A stretch of DNA of 64,000 bases from Mytilus trossulus. Lineage: Eukaryota. A program made the position numbers and the translations under genes. The notes under the pieces were generated by a model that made no database searches, was not told where the DNA came from, and saw only the letters and a program-made list of their open reading frames with translations. The stretch is taken from NCBI RefSeq assembly GCF_036588685.1, contig NC_086379.1, positions 62,930,001 through 62,994,000 of the forward strand. Reading direction: 5' to 3'. Shown here piece by piece: positions 2,822 to 62,845 of this stretch (positions within the stretch are counted from its first letter, which is position 1; every line of letters begins with the position of its first letter).

Positions 2822-3116
2822 GAAATTAACGGTACCAATTTTCTTGCACCAGATGCGCATTTCGCCATTACATGTCTCTTCAGTGATGCTCGTGGCCAAA
2901 ATATTTAAAATCCAAAGCTTATATAAAAGATGAAGAGCTATAATCCAAAAGGTCCAAAAAGTATAGCCAAATCCGTGAAAGGAATCAGAGCTTTGCATGA
3001 GGGAGATACATTCCTTAATTTATAATAATTTCTAATATTTTGTAACAGCAAATTTAAATAACACAAAAAATCCGTATTTTCATGCCAGTACCGAAGTACT
3101 TGCTACTGGGCTGGTG
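2822..3116 (-). mobile_element. Retrozyme-like element, subfamily 2, partial
   Basis: Contains hammerhead 2846-2889. Distal end shares CCAGCCCAGTAG-CA-(C/T)ACTTCGGT with the main family. Confidence 0.65.
2846..2889 (-). ncRNA. Type I hammerhead ribozyme, second subfamily (CUGAAGA core, AUC site)
   Basis: Minus strand reads GCATCA-CTGAAGA-GAC(ATGTAAT)GGC-GAAA-T(GCGC)A-TC-TGGTGC. Stems I and III co-vary relative to the main family. One mismatch in stem II. Confidence 0.78.
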
Positions 3117-3454
3117 AGTATTTTTGATTTCTTGTCCGAAAACTGGAAAATCACAATTTTAGTAATTAATAAAAGGCCACAAATCTAAAATTTATCAATT
3201 ATCGAAGGGAGCTCATGTCAATATTATCATGTTATAAAATCAAATACATTCAACAAATCGAGAGAAAAAAACAATGAAAACTTCAGGCTTAAGAATCTGA
3301 TTGATTGTTATTTGGTAAATGTCCAGTGGCAAATGTTACATCCATATTTCGGGAACGATTATAGATCAACACGTTTACAATAGGTTTACCTTTAAAGGGA
3401 TCGACAGGGATTAAGGTCTGGTCACTTAGACTTTTGACATCTGGTAGTAACTGG

Positions 3455-3535: not shown

Positions 3536-5933
3536 ACTTCTGATACCTAGTTGTAAAATATATGCAAAGTTAGAGTTCGCCCAAGGCTGTGCGGATGTAT
3601 AATTACGCAACCATGTGCAGTTGGATTGTAAAGTTTAAATTCAATACCTCTTTAGAAGGTTGTTGTAAGCTAAAATTCCTGTTACTATCCAACTTCCCTA
3701 TTTTTCTAGGGACTTAAGAGCTTTTCATCACGATCGACTTACTCTGAAGAAGCTTTAGTTATTGGATTTATTATAAGTTTATCACAGTTCAGAAAAGGCA
3801 TGCTGACTTAAAAATCAAACAACAGAAAATCCATTATTGTTTTTTAAGGACTTTTTTGTTGTAAGTGTTAACTTTCTTGAAGGTTTCAAGACAAGACAGT
3901 CTCAAATCTTCATTATATAAAACATACAAACTGTTGATAAAACAACATCATAAAACATACAAGAGCCACTCTAAAAAGAGTTATGAGAGATTAAAATGTA
4001 TATACAGTATCATGTGGGGTTTTATTCTAATTTTTATTGACAGCTTTTTTAAGACATGTCTTTACGTGCATTACGTGGTTTTTACTAGACATTGCATCGT
4101 CATCTGGGTTCTTCAAACTTAAAAATCAAAGCTACTTTTCCTTTTTCCTTTTTCCTTTTCATGCTTTTATCTTTTTCATCATGTGATTATTAGCAACAGA
4201 AGTACCCGTTCAAACATTTATCACATGCCTTTTTTAAACACATATACTGAAACTATAATATTTCTAACTAATGTAGAAATTAAATCAATAAAATGTGTTT
4301 AACTGATAGTCTACTTTTTATGTAATTTTGATTCATAATTATGATCCTAGCTTATGATTTTTTAAGAAAAAAAAATATCGAAAGATGCAAACTTTTGATC
4401 AAAGATTACTCCTACCACTTTCATTTTACAATGTCGAACAAAATATTCAGTATATTAATCAATCAACATGGAAGCATGGTCACGATTCAGTCCTCCTCTG
4501 CTCGTGGAGAGGTGGTACTGGATCATAATTCGGGGCAACCGAAAAAAAGCTACCCATCAAAACTAAAAGTAAAAAAACACTTTAAAATAAAAGCTGCATA
4601 ATAGAAGATTTCCTCACATTAACGAAAGAACTAAAACTACACCTAATAATAAGATAATAGCAAATTAAGCCCGATTATATCTCTCTTTCTAATATCTATA
4701 CAAAAGGATTAAAAACATATATTTTTTAAATGTCACAAAAACAAGTTTATGCACTGTTGGGGATAAAAAAAAATCAGTCAGATGTAACACATGTATATGA
4801 ATTTGAAGCACACAAAAATCAATACTATATTTCTTATCAGCTGAAAACAAGGCCAATATTCAGTAAATGAACTATACAGACCACTGATTTAAAAATGAAA
4901 CCGTGACAATTGTTATCTATATTTTCACATTAAATCGTTTTTATGTCTTTTTTAGTCTATGGGTATCGGCATTATGCATTTATACAGAATAACATCAACA
5001 TCATAACATATGAACGACATTTATAACATTTGTGTGCACCTCGTCATATATATTAGTATTACGTCATTTAAATGGTATTATTCTTAGTGTCCAATAAAAA
5101 TAATTTAGATAAATTTAAAATGTAACACATATACATGTAGACAATGCCTGATTCTAAGGTTTAGATCACCTGTACACACATAATATTTATGCCTTTCCGT
5201 CAAGTTTGGTTGAATGTTGCTTCTTCAACGTCCAGTAACTAATATTTCATGCACTTATAAGTTGCAGCCCTAGCTATGTAAAATATTTAAATCAGAAAAC
5301 TAAACATACGATAGGTATGCGCTGCAAATAGGTTCGACGGGTACGATGAAGGTTGTTAGTTTGTATTACCACTGTGAAAAAAAACAGGACCGATTAGCCG
5401 TAGAGCAAAAACTTTGCCAATCTACACTAAAAAATGTTACAAGGGTCGTTTTAGGTTCAGAGAGGACTTTTCACAAATTGCTTGATACAGTTTTAATATG
5501 TTCTTCTGGACTTTTAGCAAAAGATGAAGAAATGTATCGTCCTTCACTCTACTGCATGGATATTCTCGGGAACGCAGTAAGTGTCCTCACAAATAACATT
5601 ATATTTCTTGCATATATTTATTCTATACAACTTCGTTTTGTGTTTGTGTTTGTTTATGATTTATATGTATCACAAGCTTCACTAATTGTTGTATCTTTGT
5701 CTTTTAATTTTGATTATGTGCATCGTATATATGCCTTTTTGTGTTTCTTTATTACATAATTGTTTGTTTTTATGGTAAATAAGATTCTAACACAATGTTA
5801 ACTGCTGTACCCCTATTTGTGACATTTTTACCTGTTATGTCTGTTTGTTTTGTTCATGCATCGTTGTCAATATAACAAAATTTTATGCGACTGTCATACA
5901 AGTGAGATGTTTAGCTAGCTATAAAACCAGGTT

Positions 5934-6027
5934 ACTATTTTGATCTGAGCGTCAATGGTGAGTCTTGTGTAGATGAAACGCGCGTCTGGAGTATTAAGTT
6001 GTAAGCCTGGTACCTTTGAAAACTATT
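5934..6027 (+). mobile_element. Retrozyme fragment with mutated hammerhead, nested in dispersed repeat E
   Basis: Core reads ATGGTGA instead of CTGATGA. Ends ..GGTACCTTTGAAAACTATT. Confidence 0.7.
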
Positions 6028-6807
6028 AATTTCTTTCATTTTCTACATAAGAAAATGCCTGTACAAAGTCAGGAATGTGATAGTTGTTCATTCGTTTGCT
6101 ATGTTTGAGCTTTTAATTTTGACTTTTGATCACAGACTTTCCGTTTTGAATTTTCCTCGTAGTTCGGTATTTTTGTTATTTTACTTTGGGTTAAATTTCT
6201 AAAGACAATGAAAATTTATAGAGTATTATTTGAAATATAGGAAAATAATATACAAGTTTCATAAAATGCAAAATGATATAATCAACACCTTTTTTATCTA
6301 GTATGCAACAAAAAACGATTGAATACAAGAGGCATTTTGTTATTGAAACATTTGACCCACATACTGAGAGAGATTTTCTTCAATCAAAGGACTTTTTCTG
6401 TTTGATATGTAACACATACATCAATATAAACTTTATATATCTTAAACTGACAAACATCTAAGAATGAGCTTTTTTCCAATAAAAGTAAAAATAAAACAAT
6501 TGACGAAAATAATCCAACAAAACAAAAATGAAATGCAAACATATCGATTCAATATGTACATAAAAAAATCGTCACAGATTCAATTACTTAATGATAAAAC
6601 TTTAAAAATAAAGATAATGAATATTAAATCCGTCTTTAATATTTAAAACGAGAGTGAATAGTAATTATATTGCCATGAAAAATAAATGAATGCAAAAGTA
6701 ACATAACCAAAATACCGAATTCCAAGGAAAATTCAAAATTGAAAATCCGTTTTTTAAATTGCAAAACCAAACGACTAATGAAAAACAACTTTCATATTCC
6801 TGACTTG

Positions 6808-7229: not shown

Positions 7230-10200
7230 TTGGTACAGACAATTCCTTATGGAGAAAATAGTAGATTTAACCTGATTTCATAGCTAGCTAAACATTTAAC
7301 TTGTACTACAAAACAGCAATTACAAGGAAAGCATTCCTTAGTAATATCTGCCCTAGATATGAATAGAAATATGAATAATCAAAGAAATAAAATACCCAAT
7401 GGTATTTAGTGTCTGTACGAAATCGCATTGATCCGAATTTTGTCTTTAAGTCGTTTGTTAATTGTCGATTTTCCCAAGGTATACTAGACCAGTTATTTTC
7501 AAAAGACAGCATATAGAGTTAGTCTGACTGTACATAAAAGGTTCATCAGAAGGTACAAAGACCTGAGCTTGTTGATAAATATTCTGTATCAACTTCACAA
7601 ATAATACACGATGGTCTTGAAATATAGATTCTGGGTACCGACGTTGTTCATCATCTGATTAACGTGTTATGGTATTCATTTATTTGTCTTTATGAATATG
7701 CTTTTATTGTTTTGTCAGTTCTTTTGGTGGAATACATTTGACGTGACTCTGTACTTATACATCTCGTCATTGTGTTATTGTTATATGATAATTTTGTATT
7801 CTTGTCTTTCATTTTTGCTAATATGCATTTTCTTTATGTCTTTTTGTGTTTCTTGGTTACGTATGACATGGCTCTGCACTTTTACATCCCGTCATTATGT
7901 TATTGTTCTATGATAATTTCTGTATTAGTGTCTTTTCATTTTGCTTATGTACTTTGTGTGTGTATAAAAAAAGAAGATGTGGTATGATAAACAATGAGAC
8001 AACTCTCCACAAGAGACAAAATGACACAAAAATTAACAACTATAAGTCACCGTTAATGTGTGCCTTTTAGTGTGTTTTTTCTTGCATATGACTTGGCTCT
8101 GTACTTATTTATCCCGTCATTGTGTCATGGTAAATGTTTCTTTATATATCTGTTTGTTTTTGTAGTGAATAAGATAATAACACAGTGTTGACTGCTAAAT
8201 TTTTTACATTTTTACCTATTTGGCTAACTGTTTTGTTCACACATTGTAGTCAGTATAATGGAATAAAAAACTGTGAAAATGTCTGTACCAAGTCCGGAAT
8301 ATGACAGTTGTCTTTGTCCAGTCGTTTGATGTGAAGGGACTTTCCGTTTTGAAATTTTTTCGGAGTTCAATATTTTTGTGATTTTACCTTTTTCTATATA
8401 TTTTTCTATGCAATAATGAAAATAATTAATAGCTACTTTTGATTTACAAAAACTCGCTTTTTGGTAGAATTAGATCAATATAGTTTCTAAGTTTCCTAAG
8501 TAGGAAATAAGTGCAAAGATGACTACCTTTCAAACTGTTTTGATTCGATGATCACAAATGAATGTTATGTAAACAAAACGCGTATGACGTCATCAATTTT
8601 AAGCTTGATATCTTCCATAAACGTGGTTTTTACCCCAAAGAAATAGACTGCCATAACCGTTTTGCAATACCTTTTCGGAATTTTTAGGTTTTTTTCCTTC
8701 TGCTTTGAATTTGATCATACTTTTCAACTGTTCATATCCCATTGCCTCAGATGAGTCTCACGTTTATATAACGCGTGTATGGCGTAACAAAATATAAGCC
8801 TAGTAGCTTAGGTTTTCTAGAGTTTTTTTCTCTGTTTGACCTCTTTTAATGATCACAAACCTGTCAATATTATGCATGTAAAAGATCACATTGTTTTATC
8901 ACCTCCAAGTCAAACATTTCATGAATTAATAAGTCGTGAATTTAACATTTTAAGGGCATAACTCCTGTGCACACTTGTGAATTGCTACGAATCAATGCCA
9001 TTTTTGAATTAATGGTATTTCAGATGTGAAGCCTATCTCTTTTTCAAGAATGAATTAGAAACTGTTATAATATTGTTGTCCTGTCATTTCAATTTAGCTA
9101 GCACCAAAACCATGTTCAACACCCGATATTTTCTTAAAATGTCCTTTACCAAGTCAAGAAAATTGCCACTGTTATATTATGGTTCGTTTCTCTGTGTGTT
9201 ACTTTTAAGTGTTGTGTTTCTGTTGTGTCGAATTTTCCTCTTATCTTTGATGTTTTTCACTCAGTTTTAGTTTTAACCCGGATCTGGGTTTTTTTTCACA
9301 ATCGATTTATGAATTTCGAACAGCGGTATTCTACTGCTGCCTTTATTTATAATATAGTGTCGTTTAACAAGTACATGCATATGCTAGCTTTCACAAATGA
9401 AAGAGATAAAAAAAAATTAAATCATTGATTGACATATTGAATATACAATTGCTTATTGTTGAAGACCTTAAGTTGACCTCTGTATGTCTTTTGTTTGTGT
9501 GTTATTGAAGGAAAAAGTTTTATTGAAAAATATTTGTATTTTACACATTGATATGTCAGTTTCTAAACAATAAAAAATAAGATTATAGCTAAATCCGACT
9601 TTCTTAGTTACAGTTACACTTTCTATAAACTCAAAAGGTACAAGGATTAAAATTCTGTACGCAAGAAGCGAGTTACCTCTACAAAAGAATAATCAGTGAC
9701 ACTCGAATAAAAAGAGTTAAACAGGTCAAAGTAAAGTTTAAGTTTGGAGAGCATTTGAAAAATAAAGTTTAGAAAGGTTTGGAAAAATGTAAACCCTCTA
9801 GTTCATCAGATCAAGAGGGTACTGTCAGTTCCATCAAATGTTAAATCAAGAGAGTGAACTATATATTAAGTCAAGAGTGTACCATCCGGTAAATTAAATG
9901 TAGAATCAAGAGAGTGGACTATCTTGTCTATTAAATGTTAAATCGAGAGAGTGTACCGTCTATTCTATCAAATGTTAAATCGAGAGAGTGTACTGTCCGG
10001 TCTATCACATGTTGAGCAAACAGAGTGAACCGTGTAAAACCATGTTTGTTAATTTGTAGAATAAATAACTTTTGAACAGCGGTACACTATATATAGCTAC
10101 AGCTGTCTTTATTTATTTCAAGGATTCAACCAGTCCGGTAGCCTGACAGCATGTAAACTAGTAGAATGAATTCACTATTGAACAGCGGTATATTTCTGAT

Positions 10201-10416
10201 GAGTTTATTTATTCATTAATAGAGTGAACCACATGGTTTAAATTTTTAATCAAGAGAAAAAATTATCTAGTCCAGCAAATGTTTTATTAGAAAAGAGTAT
10301 AATCTGGTCCGAAGCGCATTTCTGGATTTACCTTTATTGGGTCAAAGAGGATGAAATATATTTGATATCCAATGACAACTTTGTACTTGTTTTGCTTTAA
10401 AACTATTTTGATCTAA

Positions 10417-10460
10417 GCGTCACTGATGAGTCTTATGTAGACGAAACGCGCGTCTGGCGT
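10417..10460 (+). ncRNA. Type I hammerhead ribozyme, intact core (predicted cleavage after C10454)
   Basis: GCGTCA-CTGATGA-GTC(TTATGTA)GAC-GAAA-C(GCGC)G-TC-TGGCGT. Stem I is GCGTCA/TGGCGT, stem II is GTC/GAC, stem III is minimal with a palindromic loop, and the triplet is GUC. Confidence 0.88.
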
Positions 10461-10757
10461 ATTAAGTTAAAATCCTTTTACTTTTGATAACTATTTACAC
10501 CATTGAGTCGATGCCACTGCTGGTGGACGGTTCGTCCCCGGGGGTATCACCAGCCCAGTAGTCAGCACTTCGGTGTAGACACGAATATCAATTATATGGT
10601 CATTTTTATAAATTTCTTGTTACAAAAACTTTGAATATTTTCGAAACTTTAAGGATTTCTTATCCCAGGAATATATTACCTTAGTCGTATTTGAAATTTT
10701 TGGTCCTCAATGCTCTTCATCTTTGTACTTGTTTGGCTTCAAACTGTTTTGATCTGA

Positions 10758-10800
10758 GCGTCACTGATGAGTCGTATGTAAACGAAACGCGCGTTTGGCG
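10758..10800 (+). ncRNA. Type I hammerhead ribozyme, second copy of the tandem pair (weakened)
   Basis: CTGATGA and GAAA intact. Stem II is GTC/AAC (one mismatch). GUU triplet ends at 10795. Confidence 0.72.
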
Positions 10801-11159
10801 AATTAAATTTTAATCGTGGTACCTTTGATAACTATATATAAGAACTGAAACAGGTAACAAGCTATATAACCAAAAATGGACATACCAGTACTAGTCAAAT
10901 CCTTGTATGGTCAACTTTTACAATTTTAAATCAAATGTCAAATCAAACACTGTAAAGTAAATAAACTAGTCCATGTAATGTTAAATCAAGAAAATGAACT
11001 TTCAGTTCTATCAAATATGAAATAAAGTGAGAACAATCTAGTCCAGGGTAAAACCAAATCCAGGAGTGGACTATCTTGTACATTGTATATTTAAACTGTT
11101 AAAATCAAAAGATTGAACCATCTACTTCTTAATGGATCAAAGTAAAGAGTAAATAATCT

Positions 11160-14885: not shown

Positions 14886-16394
14886 CGAAAATATGGTGTC
14901 TTGTTTTATACAATTTTTAAACAGTGATTGTCTGGTCTGTAAATTTTCCGAATGTGTCATAACTCCTATCACCATATTATTAATGTGTTTTGATTTGACA
15001 AACAGGATACGCTTACGAGTTCATATGACTCCAACACTTTTTAACTTGATTGATATATTGAAAATGGACTGACGAGTTTTTAACATCGGTATACTAAGAT
15101 TACCTCCTATTTAACCCCAATATCATATGTACTCCTGTCAAAAATCAATGTAACCAAGTAATTGCCGTTGCTAGTGTCTGACATATATTTAATTTCTTTT
15201 TATATTAAAAGCTAGATAAAGGCAACAGAAGTATACCGCTGTTTGAAATTCATAAATCGATTGAGAAAAAACAAATTCGGGTTACGAACTAAAACTGAAG
15301 GAAGCGTATCAAATATAAGAGAAATAAGACACAACAGACAACCAACATTACAATGTAACACACACAGAAACGAAAAATAGGGGTGTTATAAATAGTTCGA
15401 TTAATTATCTTCCCTGTGCCTATTAAATCTTAATATAAAGCATAAAGTATAGAATTTGCTGCTTATTGATGAAGGCTGTACAGTGACATTTCTACGTTGG
15501 AGTCTTTATTTTTTTTGAATTGGAATCTTATAAACAATTGTATCATATATAATTACTTTTATGAAGTTAACCATAACATAAAAAAATAACGAGAAACACG
15601 CATGGCTCATTGAATTTCGATACACCAATATATTTGAAGTATGCTTTTTCCCGAATTATAATTTTTTGTGGCTGGCAGTTAATAGGTTCCCCGTAGACTG
15701 TGAGTAATGTTTCGACAATATTATGCTTCTTCAGAATTGAACTTAAACTTTAACCGGAAGTCTTAAAAAGCGTGACACAGTTCTAATAATTCTAAAGGTT
15801 TTCTTCATTTTTAGGGCATTGAAGGTTATCAATCTCTATTAGTTTATCATGTTTGAAGAAATTGCAGACTTGCATAATTGATTTTTGTTTTCAACCTTAT
15901 GCATATTTTTCAATTTAGATCATAGCATATATAAATGAACACAATTAGAGGTAAACGGTTCTCTTTTCGTCGACGTTCAGGCAGTATTTGTAATTGCATT
16001 ATTGAATGTTAAAATTAGATTGATGCAAGAGCTTTTTATGATGAGGATAACTCCTTAAAAGAACATTGATTACCAATTTAGAATATGTTATTCATTTATT
16101 TACAAACCATAAGGGATTACACTTGTTTAATTTGTGATATATTAAATATCAGATTCTATTTGACTGTCAATTAGTTGTGTGAGGGTAGCTTTGCTTTGAT
16201 ATGTATGTGCAGATATTCTCCCGGAGGTTATCATATGCCTGGAAGTAAGCAGCACTTTATGTTGACACGAACTGTTATCGATATGATCATAATAACAAAT
16301 AAATTGATTACTCAAAAAAAAATATTTTGAAATAAGATATGCTTCCCCGGGAAAGGGTGAGCTTAGAATTCGGGTTCTTAATTCTAGTTTCATT

Positions 16395-16508
16395 GGTTCC
16401 TTATTTGGCCTTTTATTTTTTTTAGATTTGAGTGTCACTGATAAGTCTATTGACGAAACGCGCGTCTGGCGATCAAAATTTAATCCTGGTATCTATGATG
16501 TGTTTATT
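16395..16508 (+). mobile_element. Retrozyme fragment with mutated hammerhead (16432-16471)
   Basis: CTGATAA core, then GAC-GAAACGCGCGTCTGGCG. Ends ..CCTGGTATCTATGATG. Confidence 0.7.
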
Positions 16509-17581: not shown

Positions 17582-17890
17582 AAAAGTAAAATCACAAAAA
17601 TACTGAACTCAGAGGAAAATCTAATCGGAAAGTCCATAATCACATGGCAAAATCAAAATGACAAAACACATCAAAAACGAATGGACAAGAACTGTCATAT
17701 TCCTGACTTGGTACTTGCATTTTCAAATGTAGAAAATGGTGGATTAAACCTTGTTTTATAGAGCTACACTTCTCCCTTTGGTGACAGTCTTGTCATATTC
17801 TGTTATATTTACAATGATGCGTGCACTAAACAGGCATAATGAATACAATAGTCAAAATATGAGTACATCAGTCATCATCGTGTAACAATT
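17582..17890. repeat. Dispersed repeat family E (GTACCAAGTCAGGAATATGACAG..GAATTTTCCTCGGAGTTC)
   Basis: Other copies at ~5680-6188, 6697-6807 plus 7230-7305, 8150-8393, 25238-25367, 29460-29610, 34455-34770 and 44748-44889. Confidence 0.82.
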
Positions 17891-20800
17891 TTAATAGGAA
17901 GAAGCCTCATATCCTATATCAAATAAACTTTTTCAAAACAATTCAGTGCCTTACAATGAAGGAAATTGTGTTTATGAAATTCATATGGAAAACGACAAAT
18001 ATTCGTGTTAAATCTTGAAAATCTATACATTATTTCTAAATAAATGAATTGTGAAATCCTCCAATGCGACATATGAATTACACGATAGGTACCAATAGTG
18101 AATTGAATTAAGAACTGCTATGCCATCCAGGGCACATGTTTCAACTGCCAATTTAGTTCGGGTTCGTGTTGTTAAATTATAGTGGTATAGAGTTTTGTGG
18201 ACTGTTAATTGTTGATTTTTGTTTTTTGGTCGTTGTGTTTTCGGTTTTTCTTCTACTTATGTTTTTATGCCCCTTGACTTTCTCCCTTTTTTAACTTTCA
18301 TTTACGGAAAAACTTCCCTACCTTATAAAAAAACTTAACATTGCCTTAGATAACACAGTCTTTTAGTCCTCTTAGCTCCGAAAAACTTACAGTATGATCT
18401 ACAAATTAAAACGATAAAAAATCATGTTTTTTTAAACTCACAAAGTCAAATATAACATGTTCTTGATAGAATGATTAGGATAGGTCCTATGAAATATCCA
18501 TTTATCATTACAAAAATCATCGATCTATATGTAACAATAGTATCCTACACAATAATCGATTATCTGTTGAATTCAATTAATTCAGTGGAAAATATAAGTA
18601 CATAAAACAACAGGTGCTCTCAAAAAATGTTTTGCTGAAACTGCATAAAATGTAAAATGTGATTTTCATCATGTATCATACAGTTTGGATATGGAAAGAC
18701 GTGTAATTCAATAAGATATCTGTATTTTTATTAAGTTCTTATGTTTCTCTTTCTGATTCTTATATTGATGCAGAAAAGCGAAACGCTTCATTTCTCTTCA
18801 TCATTGGGAAATTTGTCATTTCCATAATCTTTTAATATACGCAGTTGTCACATTTTATATTCTAGTGCAAATGAACCTTTTTTTTACGATCATTATAGAT
18901 ACAAATTTTAAATTTTAACCTACTAAAAACTTTACATGTTTGCTATAAGTATAACTATGATGATTGATGCTTGCTCTACGTCGCATTAGAGTATAAGGCC
19001 ATATATCTCATCAAAAGCTCATTTGAATATTTTACAAAAAAGTGGTGCTGTTTTAAAATGAAAAAAAATATCTGTCCTTTACTTAACTAAAACTTTCGTT
19101 TAAAATGAAATGACTTTACTGTTCCACACTAAGAATGCGTGCTAGGATAGAAAAACTGTTAACACTATTTAGATTCTGGAATATTTTATATTGTTTTTGA
19201 ATGAAACAATTGTATTGCCTATGGTACTGTCAAATTAATCATTCATAGTATTGGAAGGGTCTGCAACAGGTTGTCGGGGTAAATGTTAAGTTGTACATGC
19301 ATTTAATTTTCCATTTTTTTCCGGATTGTTATATATATAACAGCTTAAATCATGGATATATGTTATCTATCCCTACGTATCTATTGCATCAGACGTAATT
19401 GGCTCCGCTTTTATAATTATGTATTTTTTATTGCATCATATTTGATTTGGCTTTTAACCTGCTTTGATTCTAGCGCCACTGATGGGTTTATTTGTCGTAT
19501 CAAACAGGCCCACCAATGTATAAGCCTTGTATCTTTAATTAGTGTTTATAACCATATCAACATCATCTAGTTTGGCTTTCCAGCAGATTTTTGACTTGCT
19601 GATATAAAACCAAAATGTATCTACTGTCCTAGATCAATTAGTATCATTGATGAATACAAGGTAATATAGGTCCTGCAATGATCCGTTGAATTTTGTACGC
19701 CATCACCGAAAAGCAGCGAAAAGTATATAATAGTTCTGCAGAGAGAAAATGCCTCTCTCAAAAGTAGTTCGACTTCTCTTTTTCGTATACTGCAAGGGTG
19801 CTGAAATAGAAAACGATATTTTTTTGTGAGTAATTGGTTTTTGTTGATTCCGGAAATTGAAGGCTCACAATCGACGACAGTAAACGAAGCAAAAACACTT
19901 TACAGACTCTTATTCCATTCCTTACTTTTTCTTGGTTAGTATCAATCGTTCACACAATTACATATTTATCAGAACATACCCAAGGTTAGTTATCATACGA
20001 GCTAGCCATGTTTGAGGTTTAAAATATCTGCAGCGTTTAAGTCCGTGTTATTTATTGTTTTGGTTAATTTACTATCATTTATTTGATGAATGTAAAGAAA
20101 GACCTTCTTAAAAACAACTAACATATCTTTAAAGAAGAGAGCTAGCGATGGGACCATATGTGGAACAGGATCGTTTAACACTTTCAGAGCACCTGAGGTC
20201 ACCCTAAGATATTTGTGTTGCTCAGTTTTTAGTTTTTTTAAAGCTGAGTTTTGTGTACTGGTGTTTGTCAGTTTATCTGTTGATCTTTTTTGTTTAGCCA
20301 TGGAGTTGTCAATTAATGTTTGGCTTATGAGTTTGAAATACCGTTATATAAATTAGAGTTGAGGGACTTTACAATTTGGCGCAGAGCCTATGAGAATGCA
20401 GTGTTTTGAAAAAATTTAAAAGGTGTCTATATTTACCATAAAATTAAAAGTTTAAGTTGCTGTTTATTGTAAATTTAGAACACTGTACATGGTAAGCATT
20501 TTAAATATAATAGTCTTTTCTCTTAACAATGTTATTTTACCTATACACTTTCAGATATCAAAATACTGACATAAGTGTAGAACATATGAATCGCAACAAT
20601 GTATAAAACTTGTACAGCAGTAGTAATAGCATTTTACAATACACTCATCCCAAAGAATTTCCTATAAAAATCAAACTCATGTAGTCTGTATAAAGAAACA
20701 AGAACACTTGTTAAATCTGAAATAAGTAATTTTATTTATTACATGTCCATTTCAATAAATCTTAAGAATTCTAAAGTAAATGAACTTAAAAGAAATAAAA

Positions 20801-24471: not shown

Positions 24472-24818
24472 CAAATTTGATGCCAATGCTTGTGGACGTT
24501 TCGTCCACAAGGGTATCACCAGTCCAGAAGTCAGCACATCGGTGTTGACATGAATACTAATTGTATGGTCATTTTTATAAATTTCAAGTTTACAAAACTT
24601 TGAATTTTTCGAAAAACTAAGGATTTTTTTATCCCGGGAATAGATTACCTTAGCCGTATTTGGCACAATGTTTTGGAATTTTGGGTCCTTAATACTCTTC
24701 AACTTTGTACTTGAAAGGCTTCATAACTATTTTAATCAAAGCGTCACTGATAAGTCTTATGTAGACGAAACGCGCGTATGGCGTATTTAATTATAATCCT
24801 GTTACCTTTGATAACTAT
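24472..24818 (+). mobile_element. Retrozyme-like element, about one monomer, mutated hammerhead (24741-24784)
   Basis: Colinear with 10505-10835. Core CTGATAA, GUA triplet. Confidence 0.8.
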
Positions 24819-25490
24819 ATATGACATTTTAATTTATATTTTAGAGATCAACAACATATATCTATTTGTACTACAAGTGTATGCAAAATGGTCAAATAAG
24901 TCAATTATGACCAAACATGCATATATAAGTTTCATTAAACCAGCCTTTTCGTTTTGATAGGTCTGAGGCTTAAGGGAACCCAAGTTAGATAATGATTTAT
25001 ATCTTAGTTCGGAAATCCTGATTCTTTCTGCAAAATTATATTGAATATCAATATGTATATATTCATTGGTCATATTACAAAAACAAATAGGGTATGATTA
25101 TCGGCAGAAAAAAACATTCTGCAAACGGTTGCATCGTAGCTACAACTGACCAAAATAGATTGCATTACTAATGTTAAGATGAACCAATGTGTTCAAGGTG
25201 GAAATACTGAATGTTATTATGTCTATAAAAAAAATATTACAAGTCAGGAATATGACAATTGTTATCCATTCGTTTGGTGTGTTTGAGTTTTTGATTTTGG
25301 CATTTGATTATGTACTTTCAGTTTTGAATTTTCCTCGGAGTTCATTACTTTTGTAATATTACTTTTCTGATGGCGTTGAAATAATCAAAAGGAGGATCTT
25401 TTTGAATAAGGCCGTCACGCATTAGAATATAAACGGTATAAAGAAATGGGAACGGTAAAAAATGAGGTGATAGACGATTTTGAATTAAAT

Positions 25491-28847: not shown

Positions 28848-29232
28848 AAATAAAGGCAACAGTAGTATACCGCTGTTCAAAACTCATCAATCCATGGACA
28901 AAAAAAAATAATTGGGGTAACACGCTAAAACCGAGGGAAACGCATTAAATATAAGTGGAGAACAACGACATAACACTGAAATGTAACACACACAGAAACG
29001 AATTATAATATAACAATGGCCACATTCCTGACTTGGTACAGGGCATTTTTGAAGGAAAAAATGGTGGGTTGAACCTGGGTTTATGGCATTCCAAACCTCG
29101 CACTTTTATGGCCATGTGAACTATAACATCAAAATAAATGACAACACAACACCACAGGACTACAATATAAATAAATAGGAGAACACAATTCACAAAGAAT
29201 CTCATTAACAACAGCCAACAAAAGGCAACAAG
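28848..29232. repeat. Dispersed repeat family B (terminus AAATAAAGGCAACAGTAGTATACCGCTGTTC)
   Basis: Other copies at ~9086-9348, 12548-12722, 15216-15374, 42425-42617 and 50797-50937. One end is fixed and the other variable. Confidence 0.85.
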
Positions 29233-29773
29233 TTCAAAATTTTAATACGCCAGAAGTGTATTTTGTCCACACAAGACCTACTAGTGCCGCCCAGATACAA
29301 AAGTACAAAGTTGAACAGCATCGAGGACCAAAAGATCAAAAAAGTTGTGCCAAAAACGGCACGGGTTTTCTAAACTACGATGTATATACTTTTAAATATC
29401 AATTGAAAGCACATAGTAAGATTGTGGATATGTTGAATGATAATGAAAAGGTATAGTCCATCAAAAATTTTAAAAATCAAATGACGACACAAGTGAAAAA
29501 AACAACAACTTCCATCTACATGAGTTGGTACAGGAATTTCCCGAAGAAAATAATTCGTTAAACCTGGTTTTATAGCTAGCTTAACCTCTCACTTGTTATG
29601 ACAGTTGAATAAGAGTTAGGTGATTTGAAGACATATAAAGAAGGTTGATAACTGGAGTTTGATCGATATTTTTTTTAAGTAAAACACGCGTTAAGGATGA
29701 AGCACACATGTACATTAAAGATACTCATATGCTCATGTATTATAACAAACCTTTCTATAATTATCCTGTATAT

Positions 29774-30050
29774 TAACTCATCATAAATACCAGGACTTAA
29801 TTTTTTATACACGCCAGACGCGCGTTTCGTCTACAAAAAGACTCATCATTGACGCTCGAATCCAAAACAGTTAAAAAAGCAAAATAAAGTACGAAGTTTA
29901 AGAGCATTAAGGACCAAAATTACTAAAAGTTATGCCAAATACAGCTAAGGTAATCTATGCCTGAGGTAGAAAAGCCTTAGTGTTTCAAAAATTCAAAATT
30001 TTGTAAACAGTTAATTTATAAATATAACCATATCAATGCTAATTCATGTC
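29774..30050 (-). mobile_element. Retrozyme-like element, partial, mutated hammerhead (29811-29855)
   Basis: Minus strand reads ATGATGA-GTC..GAC-GAAACGCGCGTCTGGCGT. Body is homologous to the other copies. Confidence 0.75.
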
Positions 30051-30604
30051 AGACCAAAAACGATACATTTGTGTAGTCTTGAATTTCTGTTTTCTGTTAA
30101 CTGAATTTTTATTATACATCTTTTTTTTTGGTCTTATGACCTAATGATTTTAGCTCTCAATTAAAAGAGAGAGAAAAATCATTGGTGGTCAATTCAAACT
30201 TTTATTACGACAAAAACAGACAACACAATGACAAAAAATGAAATCTACAAACAGACACAAATGATAACAAAACAAACAACAAAAAAACAATAAATATCAA
30301 ATAGCTAATAATCAGGACCAACAACAACACAAAAAACTGAGCTGATCTCGTGTGCTTCAGAAAATTAAAAAAAAGTTCTGCAACAACTCATTGCAAGTGA
30401 CATTACGGTGGAAAGTCGCACTCGGTAAAGTCTAATTCTAATGCAACAACGTTTGTAACGTTCATTTTGATTGGATAACGTCACTAATTTACATGGCATC
30501 AATTGACAATTGATGCTATCGGACGTACGCGCAAGCGCAGACGGCATATGACAGATTTTAAATGCATGTTTTAACGTTGTTTTCTGTCAGTTTCATTAGA
30601 ATGG

Positions 30605-33621: not shown

Positions 33622-34824
33622 TATTTAGTCTGTGATTAATTAATCCTCAAATTATATTGTGACATATAAAAACACCTATACAATTAGGTTTTACAAACTC
33701 AGTCTCGCTTTAGGGTGATTCCCTCAGTTTTTGTTTTTATTTTTGCATCTCGATTTGTACGTCATTTTATGAGATCCGAGGTTAATCTTTCCTTGGACCA
33801 TATACATACTGACATAAACAAATACACACTAATTATTAGTACACATAAGGTAAACAAACACCTGACAACTTTTCACTTTTTCTGAAATGTATTAATGCGT
33901 TCATGCCAGTAACAGGTATTCAGCTCGTTGGAAGTGGTCGTTACGTGGTACAATAGGATGAAATCAGTTGTCCAGCATGTTTTTGGTTTAATAGTATTTA
34001 CAAGATACATGACAATTATTAATTATGATTATTTTATTAAATTAATGAAGAGAACTGATCGAGTGAAATTAGTTTCGATGTTTCTATAACGCAATTTAGA
34101 TTCAGTAAGAATAGTTTCCTGTTTATCTTCTTCAGAAAACATAACTAGAATCGTGTTTCTTTTAAACATGTTTCTGTATACAAAGTGATTGTTTTCTGTT
34201 GTATATTTATCAATATTTATTCTTTCATTCAATTGTTCAATAGCAGCTATGCATGTATGTCGGTGATCTTATAAGTATATTAATTAATCATGAAATTGTG
34301 AATATTTTACATTTGTTATAATTTTATTCATAATTTGTACAACTACTGTCGGGCATTTTTTGTGCCTTCAGCGTCTGTTAATTTGTTTATTTAACGGTAT
34401 AATGTATAAGACTTTTTGAAGTTTGTTTAAATGTATAGTGTATATACCCATTTACTTTGAAGAAAATTCAAAACGAAAAGTCCATATTCAAATGGCAAAA
34501 TCATAAGTTCAAACACATAATATGAATGGACAACAACTGTTCTATAACTGACTCAGAAGAGTCCTTTTCTCGAGTGGACAATGGTGGATTAAACCTGGTT
34601 TAAACTATCTAAACCCCTCACTTGTATAATTTACAATCGCATAACATTTAATTATTTTCACAACGATGTGTGAACAAAACGAAAAGTCATAATAGGTAAA
34701 AATGTAAAAAATAGGGGTACAGTAGTCAACATTGTGTTATTATTCAAATCAATGAAAAAACAAACAAAAATAAAGGCAAACATTCACCATGGCACAATGA
34801 AGAAATACTTACTTTTAACGATCT

Positions 34825-38100: not shown

Positions 38101-41094
38101 TACCATATATGGTAGCATATCGCCTACAGATATGTCCATTACAGGAGTGTAGTAAAAACAACTTTTATTGTTTCTAATTGTAATCTGTAATCAGATTATA
38201 TGCTTATATTACAATTTATTTAGCCTTTTGTATTCACACATCTTTTGATCGGTTTTTCTGTCGTTTTTTTCTATTCTTATATTCTGAGATGGCTAACATG
38301 TAACATTAGTACTATCTTATCGTGATTAAGTCTTCTTCTCTCGTCAATATATCATATTAAGATGACTAGACTTATTTATTTGAAAGGAATATTAATTCTA
38401 TTTACAATCAGATTAGTTTACGGACATGCAGTTATCAATTTATTTCAAAGTAAACAGCTTTTATTTGGTCAATAACTAGTTCTATATTTCATCTCATACA
38501 ATTTATGGAATTGGGTTAAAAATCAAGTGTTTGCAATTTGTTAATAGAAATATCGGTCTTTCAATGTTCTAGAGAGGTTTTATAACAAAATGTGTGTTAA
38601 ACAATATGATATAGACGGCAACGGCAATACCACACAACATCCCCAAAAAAAAAACAAACAAACAAACAAACTAAAGTTGATATATAGTGTTATGTTCTTA
38701 TTTATAAACTACTATGAAATGTTTAAAACTGCTTCATTAAAATGAATATAATAAAATAATAGTACCATAACCAACCCTTTATTTTTGCTGCTTTAACTGC
38801 AATATACAACTTTCAATTACCATTGGAAAAGTATGTCTATGATTTTTTTTAAACTGATGCCGATAACGCTTTATCAGAAGTTTAGTCTATAGTCTATTAG
38901 CAAATAGAAAAGTTGAAGTTTCGAACTTAAAAAGCGGACAAAATCTTGTTGTACACCTATGAAAGAGTTGGGTTTTCTTTGCATTTTGTGTTTTTTGCTC
39001 TACATGAAGTACTGATTTTGTGTCATGGATAAATATCCCATATCATTGCTTTTCAGCTATCATTTACGACTTTTCTACTGTCAATTAATAGTTGACTTTC
39101 TAGAATAACGAGTTAATTCTCACAACATCTTTTTTTAACGAAATGTACGGTATCATTCCATATGTTAATTGCATTTTTGTTGGTAAAGAGAATGCAAAAG
39201 GTTTATTATTATTGTTTAATATTTGAGACGAACCGTGTTCTAAAAGGTCTCCGCCGATTCACATGTTTTCTCTGTCCAAGGACAATAACCCAATTATTTT
39301 TGTTTGTATTTTAAAAAAAAAATCATAAATGTCCTACAAGAAATGTAGGCGTGAAATCGTTCACTCTGCCATTTTGAACATATTTTTCATTTCTAGGGGC
39401 ATTTTAACTCAAGTATAATTTTTGATTGGAACCCCTTACGCATTCAAGACTTTGCTGAAACAAAACCATTGAAGAAAATTTCATAAAAGTATAGGCTAGA
39501 GAGTGATAAAATGTTATTTCACAATATTTATATTTTTAACGGTATTTGTTTTTTCATCTTATAGCTTACTGATCGGCACTGCTCGTCTTTGATACAAATA
39601 ACGTCTACAACTTTACAAGATTGTTCGCGTGATGCTGAAATAATTAAAGTTTTAAAGTTGTGACCGTATGAATGATTATTCATGTCAACGGAGGAATGCT
39701 GACTACTGGGCTGCTAATAACATGGGGAAAACAGCTACCACTCAGTGGCCTCGACTGAAAAAAGTATATCAATGTTACCACACATAATGAAACTTATTGA
39801 GGAAGTAGGATTCCACCCGCAGGAATTTTTCAAAGTTTGTATCAGTAAGCGTTCAGACTTGTCTGAAAATATTGTTTATACGAATGTATTTCTATAGATC
39901 AAAAGTGTGGGAATTTTCTATTAAATCTTTTCCCTTGGCTTGATAGAGGTATTGATAAATGTTATAATTATGCTATTGTTTAAGTACTGTAGCTATTATT
40001 CCTTTAGAAGAAAGACTATGCTAGTCTTTCTGTATAATTTATGAAGTTGTTGAATTAAATCGTTTATGAAATTCATTAACCGATAATAGTGTAGGACAAT
40101 ACTATCACATCAGCAGATGAACACTCAGTGATAGCTTTCAGCAACAAAGAACTTTCATGATACGGTATCACATTGTTAATCATAAGTTTTTGTTTTATAT
40201 TTTTGTATGGTTGTACTCTTGGTTTCTCTTATACTGGTATTCTAGTTTAGAGTTAAGTGCCTTTCCGGACTTATTATGTGATGCAAATGGCATTCTTGAA
40301 CTAATCAGAAACCTCTGCGGTTGTTGTCTTGTGTTAATTCATTTGGTAATAAAAGCAGATTATTAACAATCTTTTCCTTCAATATCATTATTTAAAAAGG
40401 TTTCTTAAGGCTGGTAAGGTTGCAAACTTGTAAAATGGAGAAAAAAATGAAAAGTAAATTCAAAGAGTCCGTTTTATGCTGATGTGCAAGGCATTCTGTT
40501 TTTAGGAACTTATATCAAATATGCGATACATTAGAAATATATAAGTTAACAATCTAAAGTTTGAAAACATTTCCATAACCACATGGTCTGTGGTCTCGGG
40601 AAGCAAAAACGCAATAAGAATGGTTCGCTAAGGTATGTGTTGTCAGTCGTTGGACTAAAAGAAATCGTTCAAGAAAATGTCAGAAAAAACGCATAAAATC
40701 TACAAATTTTCACTACTAAATCCATCGAGGAGATTTAAGAAATATGGAAGATTTAATTACTTAGCGAAAGGACATATTTCGAAAGAAAAGAAATGAAAAT
40801 ATCCGCAAAAGGATCTAAATCAATAAATCAAACAGTAATTATAAAGATTTTACGCACCAACCTCATCTAAAGAATGAAACTATCATTTTAGATTTAATTT
40901 CAAATTTTAAATATGGTGTTGGTCTTAATTTGATAATGCTTACTCATAGTTTACTAAAACTAAAACGCATGGATTATGACTTTTAGTTCGAGTTTCATCA
41001 CTAACAAATTAATGATGACCGATTTTCAAGGAATGCAACTAGGAAGATCACCGTTTCAAGATATAATTATTTGTCTCTTAATTACAAAAAACGG

Positions 41095-43690: not shown

Positions 43691-43981
43691 GGTGTAATAA
43701 TAGTTATCAAAGGTACCAGGATTATAATTTAGTACGCCGCCAGACGCACGTTTCGTCCACATAAGACTCATCAGTGACGTTCATATCGAAATATTTATCA
43801 AGCCAAACAAGTACAAAGTTGAAGAGCATTGAGGATCCAAAATTCCAAAAAGTGGTGCCAAATACGGCTAAGGTAATCTATGCCTGGAATAAGAAAATTC
43901 TTAGTTTTTGAAAATTTCAAAGTTTGGTAAACAGGAAATTTATTAAAATGACAACATTATTGATATTCATGTCAACACCGA
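43691..43981 (-). mobile_element. Retrozyme-like element, partial, intact hammerhead
   Basis: Reverse complement of the 10570-10835 and 24540-24818 segments. Confidence 0.8.
43738..43779 (-). ncRNA. Type I hammerhead ribozyme, intact core
   Basis: Minus strand reads CGTCA-CTGATGA-GTC(TTATGTG)GAC-GAAA-C(GTGC)G-TC-TGGCG. Confidence 0.82.
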
Positions 43982-44745: not shown

Positions 44746-45587
44746 AAACGAAAATGTCTGTACCAAGTCAGGAATATGACACTTGTTGTCAATTCGTTTA
44801 ATGTGTTTCAGCTTTGATTTTTCATTTCATTAGATACTTTGGGTTTTGAATTTTCCTCGGAGTCTAATATTTTTAGATTTTACTTTTTCCTATACAGTAG
44901 CAACGTTTAAAATGTATATATATATGTGAAAACGCATAAACTTATATTTCAAGTGGGTGACATTCGTCGAAGAATTGATCCTAGCATCTGGTAATTAGGA
45001 AAAGCCTTGACAGAGGTTTTAATCAGCCAGGAAGACTGTCTATCTACTTGATGGTAGCGAACATTAAGCTTAATCATTGATACCGTTTACTTCATTAGTA
45101 ATTGAATTTCAATCGAATATTGATGGTATCATTATTGTCAGACAATTTGTTACCAGACTCCTCATCATGCCATTCTCTAATGAAAAGGCGGATGTCCGAA
45201 GTTTCCAATGTCAACAATTTGATATTTAAAAGATTGCTTAATTGGTCACGGCTGCTATAAAAGGCAAACCAAGAGCATGGTATTTTAGTACTACTAATGT
45301 ATATAGAATGTAAAACCAATAATAAACTTTTTAAGGAAAGTAAATAAAATTAATTACATTTTCATTTGTTCACTAGTTGTTTTCTTTCCGTAACTGGTTT
45401 ATGGTGTTCTTATTATGTTACAATTATATATTTTATTCGTGACATCCCAATTTTCTTCATTAGCGTTATCTAAAGGATTTTGACAAAAAGGTCTTTTCCT
45501 TTAATCTTTGATATGAATGTAAAATTTGTATTTGTTATATACACTTTCTATTTTTTACAATATCACACAAGAGTTCTGAGGTTGAAT

Positions 45588-47341: not shown

Positions 47342-47536
47342 TTTCTTATCCCAGGCATGAGTTACCTTAGCCTTTATTTGGCACAACTTTTTGGAATTTT
47401 GGATCCTCAATGCTCTTCAACTTTGTATTGTTTTGGCTTTATAAATATTTTGATATGAGCGTCACTGATGAGTCTTATGTAGACGAAACGCGCGTCTGGC
47501 GTACTAAATTATAATCCTGGTACCTTTGATAACTAT
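47342..47536 (+). mobile_element. Retrozyme-like element, 5'-truncated, intact hammerhead
   Basis: Homologous to 62650-62840 and 24628-24818. Ends GGTACCTTTGATAACTAT. Confidence 0.82.
47459..47502 (+). ncRNA. Type I hammerhead ribozyme, intact core (predicted cleavage after C47496)
   Basis: Identical 44-nt motif to 10417-10460. Confidence 0.88.
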
Positions 47537-54600: not shown

Positions 54601-55539
54601 ATTATTTGAAACGGTGTCAAATGTATATTATTGATTTATCTGTAATTGTCTGGTTTTCTTTCTTTAATTTACTATAATCTTAGAATTAAATGCTTTTTAA
54701 GGACCTTTTTATTGCTTATTATTTTATATTCGTATTTATACTGATATGGATAAAAGCGGGAAGTACAGAAATATCAAAAACTAGATTAAACTACCTAGAT
54801 ATTTATGTGTCTGTCCCAAAATTGAAACATTGTCTGCTGTTGACTAATCTTAATTGATGTTTGTTTAATGTTAAACTTTTATTTTTATTTTCATTTTTAG
54901 AATTGGTGTTCTTGGTAGACCTTTATCTGCGTAATTTAATATAAACAGAAAATATTTAATTTCCAAATTTTCACAGAACTTTTTTCTAAAATATCTTTAA
55001 AAAATCTTAATTTCAAATGCGCTTTAACTTTACCAGCCTGATATTCGCGTAGTTTGATATTAAAAAAAAACAAAAAAACTTAATTTCCAATTTTTCACAT
55101 GACTCTTTGTATAAATAATTTTTTTTTTTTTTTTTTTAAATTGATACTTGTTTATTCCAAATATTTCCTGTTTACAATTTCCTCAGTTGCCCAGGATGCA
55201 AACTGTGGATTCCCGTTTACATTTAAACCAACTGTCCGGGAAGCAGGAGGTTGAAAAATGTGCACTATATTATCCGAAAAAAATAGTATACATGTAATAA
55301 TACTTATATTCTTTTATATGACAATGAGTGAAAAAGGAATATCTTTATAGAATGTACTACTAGTGGTAAATAATATAACATTATAAAATCATAAACGAGT
55401 GCACCTATAAACCAGATTCACATAATATTTAAACATAATCGAGTGCATCTTTAAACCATGGATTACCGTAATCAATATAAATTAAAGAGATATAAAAAAA
55501 AACAGACAACATGACTGCTATCTCCTGCAAGGTATGTAC

Positions 55540-58500: not shown

Positions 58501-59379
58501 TGTATATCATTATATTTGTCTTTACTATTTTTCCATCCTTCCCAAAAGATTTTAAAAGCATTTGAAAACTGCTCAGATTTAATTGTATTTAAGTTCATAA
58601 TCCACATACCCGGCCCTCTTTCTATATCATCTAACTTAATTTTTTATGTAACTATTTCGTGATCACTAAATGGGAAATGAGATATACGAGTGTTAAATAT
58701 TTTACTATTCAAAGATTTGCTGCAGAAAATAAAATCTATACGAGACTTAGAATTTCCTCTCTGAAACGTATAACGTTTTGTATCTGGAAATCGAGATCTC
58801 CATATATCATCTAATTCATATCTCAATAAAAGATTTTTTAATTCAATTGTACCGACGTCATTATTTTGATGTGATGGCATTCTGTCTATTTTTTTGTCTA
58901 AAGTACAATTAAAGTCTCCTAATAATACGGTGTAGTGTTCAACGCTATCATCGTCATACACTTTATTTAAGTTGCGCAAATTTTCGTAAAAAGTCTTTCA
59001 ATCGGAACCGTTGTTCGGTGTATATACAGACGAGTTGTATATACATTAATAATATGATATACAGCATTATCTTTTTTATGTCACACATTTGACATCTTCC
59101 GTTTTCATCGTGATTTGTAAAAGTTACATTTTCAGAAAAATTCTTTTGCAAAAGGAATCCCACTCCCCTTGAATCAGAAGTTCCGCAATTCCAAACTGAT
59201 TCCCCTCCCCCAAATTTTTTCCAGTCATTACCCCAGTTATCAATATCAGATTTTGAACAATGTGTTTCTTGAAGACAAATAATATCGAACTTTTTTAAAA
59301 CTAACCAATTAAAAATCATATCTCGTTTTTTATTGTTTCGTAAACCATTTACGTTTATAGAAGCAATTGACAAAGACAT
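55540..59379 (-). pseudogene. Retrotransposon ORF2p (APE endonuclease, reverse transcriptase, CCHC), disrupted
   Basis: EN motifs SINVNG, LQETH, LLGDFN, SRIDF and SDH. RT motifs WRPLTLLNTDYKI, FLDQQKAFDRV, RQGCPIAP and FADD. C-terminal CHIC..HLFFDC. Lesions: -1 in A-run ~59072, 17-bp insertion ~59030, TGA 59000-58998, in-frame TAA 58646-58644, -1 in A-run ~55960. Confidence 0.93.
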
Positions 59380-59900
59380 ATTAAGATCGAATAGTTTTTT
59401 GTTTCTTTCTTTCGTCATTTAAATGTTTCACTTGAATGCTTTGAACCTGATTATATCTATTTGGAACAATAAACTTAACGGATCGTTTATGTGTATACCT
59501 TTGTGTAAACAAATCAGGTAAAACTTTAATCATAAAGCGTCGTTTAAAAACCGTATAAGGTGTAATAAACAGATTCTCATCATATAACAATACTAAGCGT
59601 CGTTTAAAAACCGTAAAAGGTATAATAAACAGATACTTATTCATCTTCTCAATATTTAACAATACAGTTTGGTATAGCTTAGCAATGTTTGCACTTTTTG
59701 CAATATATACATATAGGCATATAAACGAATTATTTTTAAATAACATATACATACGAAAAATATGTTTTAAAAAGTGGACATAATATTTACAGTGATACAT
59801 TTGTGTTTTTTGTTTGTTTTTTTTTTTTTTTGTTTTTTTTAAATATTTGTTTTTAACATTAAAATCAGATTAAGTAGTCTGAGTGTTTATTCACATGGGT

Positions 59901-62537: not shown

Positions 62538-62575
62538 CAGAGACGTATATACACATATGTGTATATATGTCTCTG
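62538..62575. repeat. 38-bp near-perfect palindrome
   Basis: CAGAGACGTATATACACAT|ATGTGTATATATGTCTCTG, one mismatch. Flanked by GCTATAG and GTTATAG. Confidence 0.85.
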
Positions 62576-62582
62576 GTTATAG

Positions 62583-62845
62583 TCAATGTGGTTATTTTTT
62601 ATACATTTCCTGTGTACAAAATTTTGAATTTTTCGAAAAACAAAGGATTTTCTTATCCCAGGCATAGATTACCTTAGCCGCATTTGGCACAATTTTTTGG
62701 GAATTTTGGTTCTTCAATGCTCTTCAACTTTTTACTTGTTTGGCTTTATAAATATTTTGATATGAGCGTCACTGGTGAGTCTTATGTAGACGAAACACGC
62801 GTCTGGCGTACTAAATTATAATCCTAGTACCTTTGATAACAATTT
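62583..62845 (+). mobile_element. Retrozyme-like element, partial, mutated hammerhead (62766-62809)
   Basis: Core reads CTGGTGA. Otherwise close to 47342-47536. Confidence 0.8.

Follow-up and report, generated by a model that had tools for sequence, protein, structure and literature searches.

The repeat copy at 47342..47536 (+ strand; copy K, from which the analysis started) spans -153 to +40 relative to the cleavage position of its hammerhead ribozyme, which lies after 47496. The locus raises the question of what places the end of such a copy 40 nt beyond the cut, and which enzyme copied which form of the RNA to produce it.

A hammerhead repeat and its common 3' end

The core of the type I hammerhead in copy K (47459..47502, + strand) matches Rfam RF00163 with 33 bits (E 2.4e-4). 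BLAST with the whole doubled monomer finds 15 loci of one ~341-355-nt repeat family in the window, by which we mean the whole 64,000-nt stretch that was analyzed (31% GC), and a type I hammerhead is recognizable with RF00163 in five of them. Hammerhead cores are placed at 10417, 10758, 29855 (-), 43780 (-) and 47459 with 25-33 bits; these matches, and those to two units of a multimer from a metagenome contig (L002), fall just under the RF00163 gathering score of 34. The “cleavage triplet” is positional only, reading GTT in the second unit of copy D (D2) and GTA in copy F. From cut to cut, the monomer measures 341 nt in copy D, which carries a 14-nt deletion, and 355 nt in L002; tandem units are found in copy D, in B/B2 and in L002. 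The repeat comprises two related subfamilies, the second represented by E, H, L001 and L003. Mytilus retrozymes have been described as ~350-nt repeats (350-390 bp in mussel) with a type I hammerhead, occurring as two related families and in tandem, and both self-cleavage and the accumulation of circular RNA have been published for them (PMC7229834). Because size, motif, the two subfamilies, the GC content and the Naiad_Mgal-like fragments of the window all fit, the repeat appears, as far as its sequence allows this to be tested, to be a mussel-type non-LTR retrozyme. The window is animal DNA, parts of it also occur in mollusc metagenome runs, and together with the Naiad_Mgal-like fragments this suggests a Mytilus-like source.

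The original prediction, that homology to the repeat stops about 40 nt past the cut, was correct in its coordinates, with ends at +40 or +41 in copies A, D, F, K and L. Cleavage position and end are 5986 and 6026/7 in copy A (5934..6027, +; -52 to +40/41), 10795 and 10835 in copy D (10376..10835, +), 24778 and 24818 in copy F (24479..24818, +; nearly one full monomer, +56 round to +40), 47496 and 47536 in copy K, and 62803 and 62843/5 in copy L (62586..62845, +; -215 to +40/42). Copy D is a 1.35-mer of 460 nt with cuts after 10454 and 10795, and its end is +40 of the second unit. Copy J (43691..43981, -; -239 to +47) is slightly longer, as had also been claimed: it ends at +47 (43743 to 43691) because it runs 7 nt into the repeat's own continuation, a spacer. 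In the second subfamily the end lies at the homologous position despite the differing sequence, within the window in copy H (29767..30051, -) and in the decayed copy E (16219..16507, +).

Ends in decayed copies are local-alignment ends and thus approximate: ~+41 in the old copy G (29210..29372, -; 67%), ~+33 in the old copy C (9631..9788, -; 72%) and ~+43 in the very old copy N (19284..19548, +; 61%). The old copies B and B2 (8527..8805, +) form a unit ending near +36 followed by a 5'-truncated unit (-152 to ~+26). At their junction (8620-8627) the end of B directly abuts the truncated unit, an arrangement that fits either a second start of copying at the same site or insertion of the element at its own end. 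Two loci are outliers: copy M (2837..3117, -), from a divergent family (68%), fades from the alignment at +14, and copy I (39646..39780, -), which retains only the decayed region of the structured domain described below and no hammerhead, is an exception to the fixed end. A core block of that domain recurs with one mismatch ~40 nt upstream of the domain in fragment I (39813-39822, -) and is possibly a decayed duplicate. An isolated retrozyme piece of ~22 nt (~+15..+38) at 62948-62969, 105 bp 3' of copy L, stands outside the 15 loci. Copy D is flanked by a 74-bp minisatellite (18.6 copies, 94% matches) and nearby arrays of 37-bp period (11092-12960 and 9896-10013), and an imperfect 163-bp palindrome (85%) occupies 30605-30767.

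Alignment to a doubled monomer, the comparison suggested at the outset, clusters the 3' ends and scatters the 5' ends. The 3' alignment ends of nine of the 15 loci fall within the 8-nt window +40..+47 and those of 13 within +26..+47, and 0 of 20,000 uniform simulations matched either clustering. The best 8-nt cluster of 5' ends holds just three of the 15 loci, in agreement with the earlier observation that these ends vary.

Nine true copies (L001-L008 and L014) were recovered from public collections; the main search pattern lies wholly upstream of the cut and so introduces no bias toward any end. A 27-nt pattern gave eight stretches in metagenomes and none in the viral and genome contigs. A 19-mer search of the genome contigs gave 14 matches, including L014; the other 13, having no further similarity, were dropped, and a single viral match was likewise dropped as a retrozyme copy. 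Six solo copies from the collections have sequence past the cut, of which five share the homologous end and one (L007) ends at ~+10 to +14; the other three are L002, a multimer, and L005 and L008, which are truncated where their contigs end. L001 has a second fragment that ends at -69, and L008 has two internal deletions, one of which begins within the hammerhead core and reaches almost to the common end. The contig that carries L014, close to its start, is labeled as a cyanobacterial metagenome-assembled genome, and the copy is probably there through host contamination.

The fixed 3' end is real and genome-wide in the contigs of four DNA runs. These contigs, which bear four organism labels, were compared with one permuted monomer (L002:451-805), and the junction table covers the top six rows per run (24 of 2,414), run X2 being fully counted and X1, X12 and X16 partly counted. 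Within these top rows, the leading junctions with long unlike flanks (agreement 0.38-0.40) fall at +41/+42/+43 in every run; +40 is not among them. The contigs at +41, +42 and +43 number 277, 205 and 213 in X2 and at least 399, 331 and 316 in X1. X12 has at least 346 at +41 and 271 at +43, and X16 at least 322 at +41 and 234 at +42, the remaining position not being among the top rows in either run. By rough arithmetic, the average row in X2 holds at most ~17 contigs (10,383 partly aligned contigs, about 600 rows). The original prediction had named uniformly distributed ends, or a peak at the cleavage site, as the outcomes that would speak against it; among the top six rows per run (24 of 2,414) neither appears, no row lies at the cut and the strongest junctions are those at +41 to +43. 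The common 3' end is a 3-4-nt window (+40 to +43) and not one base, blurred over this range because of matches with the AT-rich target. A drop in depth across +40 (ratio 0.47-0.56 in the four runs) was discounted, since depth does not measure copy number and falls still lower at the reference's private variants. Loose ends at 523, 574, 693 and 697 (L002 coordinates) were set aside as subfamily differences from the reference rather than insertion junctions, because the letters beyond these ends agree with one another (0.54-0.74) and also match the element.

The flanks of the retrozyme copies are mutually unrelated. Copy A sits within a Naiad 3'-end fragment (5760..6187, +) without target duplication, and a Naiad 3'-end fragment at 34459..34800 (-), which falls short of the common Naiad terminus, offers a paralogous empty site. 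The empty-site comparison proposed earlier was run on this paralogous site, and it shows that the insertion went into an AT-rich run, that nothing was duplicated, and that the copy ends at +40 or +41. Target duplications are not above chance in any of eight copies, the longest shared junction word being 4-6 nt, as in random pairs; duplications over 4 bp “when present” are an optional trait of non-LTR retrozymes (PMC7229834). No poly(A) or simple-repeat tail is seen in the alignment of copies. Neither a 30-40-bp PLE tail nor an inverted 5' copy was seen, features that are optional in PLEs (PMC8557442); what was observed is the 7-nt extension in copy J and, ~10 bp before the 5' end of copy L, a 38-bp near-perfect palindrome (62538-62575). 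Palindromes at PLE 5' junctions have been described (PMC3846280). The junctions of copy A (5933-5934 and 6026-6027) lie in a short segment that shows good conservation across the Naiad-fragment paralogues; should this segment be the scissile region of a twister-like fold, copy A could represent a Naiad-retrozyme-Naiad template switch rather than a plain insertion. An Rfam search found no twister in the Naiad 3' fragment paralogue at 17560-17920.

A predicted fold 3' of the end and at Naiad starts

In predicted folds, the common 3' end falls in an AC-rich, mostly unpaired spacer, and the most stable part of the monomer follows immediately on its 3' side. In copy D the 7-nt spacer (+41..+47; 10495..10501, +) separates the end from a GC-rich domain (+48..+105; 10502..10559, +), predicted from folds of the L002 unit and matched by eye to Naiad 5' ends, and a UUCG-capped hairpin (10561..10580, +) follows the domain in the retrozyme monomer and is absent from the Naiad starts inspected. 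The predicted domain consists of helix P1, a 1-nt bulge, helix P2 and the core blocks GCTGGTGGA and TCCCCG; it is decayed at P1 in copy D. Folding of the L002 unit gives z scores of -3.8 and -2.8 for the domain, in regions chosen after the fact. In both monomers examined, the 85-nt stretch of greatest predicted stability includes the domain; taken whole, the monomer is no more stable than its shuffled versions (z -0.5). Positions +36..+47 are mostly unpaired in the predicted circle of the near-consensus L002 monomer, and the spacer is less unpaired in D. The fold has no matching family in Rfam. Covariation is absent among the seven retrozyme rows compared, a set with too few rows in which the domain is decayed and L008 is misaligned.

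The same fold opens 16 of 54 published Naiad consensus sequences (PMC8557442 supplement), as compared by eye on the printed consensus sequences without a computed alignment or covariation statistic. Of the 16 occurrences of the 9-mer GCTGGTGGA in that supplement, 14 open a Naiad main body, the hosts being corals, bivalves, hemichordates and a fish; two more starts, with the 9-mer split over a line or altered by one change, bring the families to 16. In each of the 16 starts, TCCCCG or a close variant forms the second block after the 9-mer. The remaining 38 families have no exact motif match, and most of their starts lay outside the by-eye comparison. The probability of finding both core blocks by chance in a 355-nt monomer is ~5e-8, or 2e-7 under a GC-rich model. 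In a search of viral sequences, 120 matches to the gapped core motif were rejected: those in the 25 lowest-GC contexts are chance-like, and no Naiad locus was found there.

The closing helix of the fold, again read by eye, is ACUGGGU/GCCCAGU in the retrozyme, ACCAAGU/ACUUGGU in Naiad_Mgal, ACCGAAC/GUUCGGU in oyster Naiads and ACCAGGU/ACCUGGU in Naiad-1_Pfla. Between the retrozyme and Naiad_Mgal, the 7-bp helix shows three compensatory pairs and one one-sided change, pairing is kept by other base choices in oyster, ark-shell and hemichordate Naiads, and the second enclosing helix covaries as well. In the entries that print a repeat junction, the Naiad 3' end lies 7 nt (Pmar, where the authors marked the last four letters as target) or 3-4 nt (Olur) before the closing helix; for the retrozyme ends at +40..+43 the corresponding distance is 7-4 nt. 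The consensus of Naiad_Mgal, an autonomous Mytilus PLE, begins with the same domain. Exact words of the retrozyme hammerhead and domain are absent from the PMC8557442 supplement, and the link was seen at the Naiad_Mgal start. Naiad_Mgal and Naiad_Mcor carry a hairpin insert in the fold, whereas the retrozyme domain does not, so the present partner may be another Naiad family.

Naiads have left further traces in the window, all of them 3'-end fragments; no Naiad open reading frame was found in the 64 kb. Besides the fragment interrupted by copy A, these lie at 17582..17893 (-), whose last ~125 nt nearly match the end of the Naiad_Mgal consensus by eye, and, with the same 3' terminus, at 25240..25366 (+), 44750..44887 (+), 8117..8398 (+; with an internal deletion) and 6694..6807 (-). 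One 3' terminus is common to six Naiad fragments, and this fixed end of their own indicates that the clade has been active in this genome. The doubled retrozyme monomer has no BLAST similarity to the Naiad 3' fragments of the window. We rejected the retrozyme as a plain Naiad deletion derivative, because it shares only the ~60-nt fold and adds a canonical hammerhead, and its 3' end shows no homology by BLAST to the pLTR sequence in the Naiad 3' fragments of the window.

The ribozyme probably does not set the common 3' end. The 40-nt distance to it is probably incidental, the end more likely being set by the distance to the fold on its 3' side. Judged from the sequences compared, a Naiad-type fold at a fixed distance 3' is the likely end determinant that the earlier reading overlooked.

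A proposed copying mechanism and its alternatives

We consider it probable that the retrozyme is copied in trans by a Naiad PLE reverse transcriptase that binds the predicted fold at +48..+105 and starts cDNA synthesis 4-7 nt upstream of it. The RNA would be transcribed from a locus with more than one unit, and the fold would be bound by the Naiad protein. The GIY-YIG nuclease of the Naiad would then nick AT-rich DNA, and the nick would prime copying in the unpaired AC-rich spacer. Copying would cover the 40 nt to the hammerhead junction and then cross it, and random stops would yield 5'-truncated copies. Because the junction is crossed, the template would be a ligated circle or an uncleaved multimer. 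Being located 3' of the start, the fold would not be among the first sequence copied, and insertions of less than about one unit would be without it; such fold-less copies would be dead on arrival, and only partial tandems such as D could reproduce. An internal start explains at once the presence of sequence from both sides of the cut, the seamless multimers past +40, and the short copies without a fold. The retrozyme would thereby work like a non-autonomous PLE passenger, with a fixed 3' end, 5' truncation, partial tandems and a cis element at the matching position.

A more specific reading, which we hold tentatively and with less confidence than the involvement of a Naiad enzyme, is that the ~350-nt circular RNA is itself the template and parasitizes the hammerhead-less Naiads through a copied enzyme loading site, its fold conserved from corals to fish. 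If this were true, the fold would act in cis as a portable signal that sets the start of reverse transcription a few nt upstream of itself, and any RNA carrying it could undergo target-primed rolling-circle copying by a telomerase-related enzyme.

The fixed end and the conserved position of the fold would be accounted for equally well if the fold were an internal promoter or RNA-processing signal, with the true RNA 3' end near +41 and linear RNA copied by a PLE or other non-LTR enzyme. Internal promoters of PLEs overlap the pLTR/5' region (PMC8557442), and RNA-seq read ends occur at the initiation sites of the PLE known as PAc (PMC11167929). We nonetheless regard such a signal as an improbable explanation, given that published mussel retrozyme RNAs are mostly cut-to-cut circles, linear forms amounting to under 5% to 25% (PMC7229834), that PAc initiation is internal in vitro (PMC11167929), and that the copies have no poly(A) or simple-repeat tail.

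The form of the template bears on a further alternative. The original prediction held that synthesis starts internally and runs through the ribozyme junction, and this is supported by the fixed end, by the spread of the 5' ends, and by multimers (copy D and two junctions in L002) in which the monomer carries on seamlessly beyond +40. It also held that a linear cut-to-cut monomer could not serve as template. Simple copying of such a monomer is indeed disfavored, as it would yield 40 nt only unless the enzyme jumps; the claim of outright impossibility went too far, in that template jumping between linear monomers is conceivable, if disfavored. In that scheme the enzyme would start at +41, reach the 5' end after 40 nt, and jump to a 3' end, either that of the monomer just copied or that of a different one. 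The divergence pattern of L002 offers it some support. At the second cleavage site of this multimer (plus-strand 300), the 3' side is much more diverged and of another subfamily than the 5' side; units 0 and 1 differ from each other by 6.8%, and unit 2 differs from them by 11.6-13.3%. This change may reflect a hetero-multimer or an assembly chimera, L002 being one short-read metagenome contig. Jumping is nevertheless quite unlikely on the other evidence. Variant states on either side of the cut, scored by eye, agree in 14 of 16 scorable copies (of 22 alignment rows), L006 and the old copy C being discordant or intermediate, and because variant states travel together across the cut, a covalently continuous template is favored. 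No bases are added or lost at the cut junctions except for a 3-nt duplication in J, and there is no pile-up of 5' ends at +1 among the top rows, where 40-nt pieces may be too short to place.

The suggestion that the 1.3-mer in copy D records more than one turn of a circle was not borne out: its overlapping 119-nt units differ by 13.6%, as diverged as unrelated copies, so that one circle and a read-through multimer fit equally, copy D being too old to discriminate between them. Between these two continuous templates, published abundance would favor the circle and the PAc result the uncleaved multimer, and the present data may be read with either.

DNA-level copying was considered as well. Elements that transpose by a rolling circle likewise have a fixed end, insert into AT-rich targets without duplicating them, and occur as tandem units. 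Helitron-like transposition from a fixed nick, with hammerhead and fold as passengers, would not explain why homology to the 5' ends of Naiads is found at a matching offset, and we judge it very unlikely. The window also contains a LINE at approximately 55140-61400 (-). Its ORF1 bears a GDSL-type esterase domain together with knuckle-like Cys/His motifs; the endonuclease region is broken, the reverse transcriptase frame measures 908 aa, and the tail is A-rich. Although this element supplies endonuclease, reverse transcriptase and tail, it was rejected as a partner for want of similarity to the retrozyme monomer, and a SINE-like element borrowing the 3' tail of an apurinic-endonuclease LINE (one LINE tested) is highly improbable given that the copies have neither an A tail nor target duplications.

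Comparison with known systems

The enzyme that mobilizes animal retrozymes, and the role of circles as templates, have been standing questions since 2020. In the published model PLEs are named only as candidates (PMC7229834), and according to a review no conserved motif reveals the retrozyme partner (PMC7761336). Circle-templated, more-than-unit copying by PLE enzymes has been proposed (PMC4209133, PMC7229834), and it has been suggested that hammerheads may parasitize PLEs (PMC8557442). For Mytilus retrozymes, reverse transcription from circles with PLEs as candidate mobilizers was put forward in PMC7229834, to which the present work adds the fixed end and a partner motif. Together, the fixed end and the shared covarying fold name a clade (Naiad), a predicted binding site (~60 nt) and a start (+40 to +43), so that one in vitro assay can test the partner, the signal, and circle versus line. 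They also indicate that many Naiads, elements which dominate bivalve genomes, begin with a conserved RNA element, and make a concrete case for hammerheads as PLE parasites.

Across the literature searched, which left aside subscription papers and some supplements, we found no report of a fixed retrozyme end, of the Naiad fold or of a Naiad-retrozyme link, and the fold goes without mention in the available part of the description of Naiad structure in PMC8557442. The supplements of PMC7229834 and 10.64898/2026.07.22.740005 and the supplementary figures of PMC8557442 lay outside this search and may bear on novelty. What is new is the shared fold, which points to a likely partner and a start site; for the general mechanism there is a precedent in another PLE.

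That precedent is PAc, a Poseidon-clade PLE of the lizard Anolis, which nicks AT-rich DNA (PMC11167929). Its reverse transcription starts internally, 85-92 nt 3' of the hammerhead cut, and needs RNA 3' of the start; hammerhead cleavage is dispensable (PMC11167929). PAc and the retrozyme have AT-rich targets in common and, with the start predicted here for the retrozyme, also initiation downstream of the cut in AC-rich RNA, the need for RNA 3' of the start, and genomic ends at the initiation sites. They differ in that PAc is autonomous, belongs to a different PLE clade and has two starts inside its ORF, and neither circle nor retrozyme is studied in the available text of that work (PMC11167929). 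Xenopus retrozymes have been argued to be non-autonomous PLE sequences on the basis of co-occurrence and pLTR similarity (10.64898/2026.07.22.740005); that study, in its accessible portion, includes no molluscs, end mapping, initiation site or Naiad link, and leaves the mechanism open. The Naiads themselves are abundant in bivalves and show 5' truncation, partial tandems and AT-rich targets (PMC8557442), as the retrozyme does. Naiads encode a nuclease and a reverse transcriptase and are without canonical hammerheads (PMC8557442), whereas the retrozyme adds a hammerhead to the fold that it shares with them.
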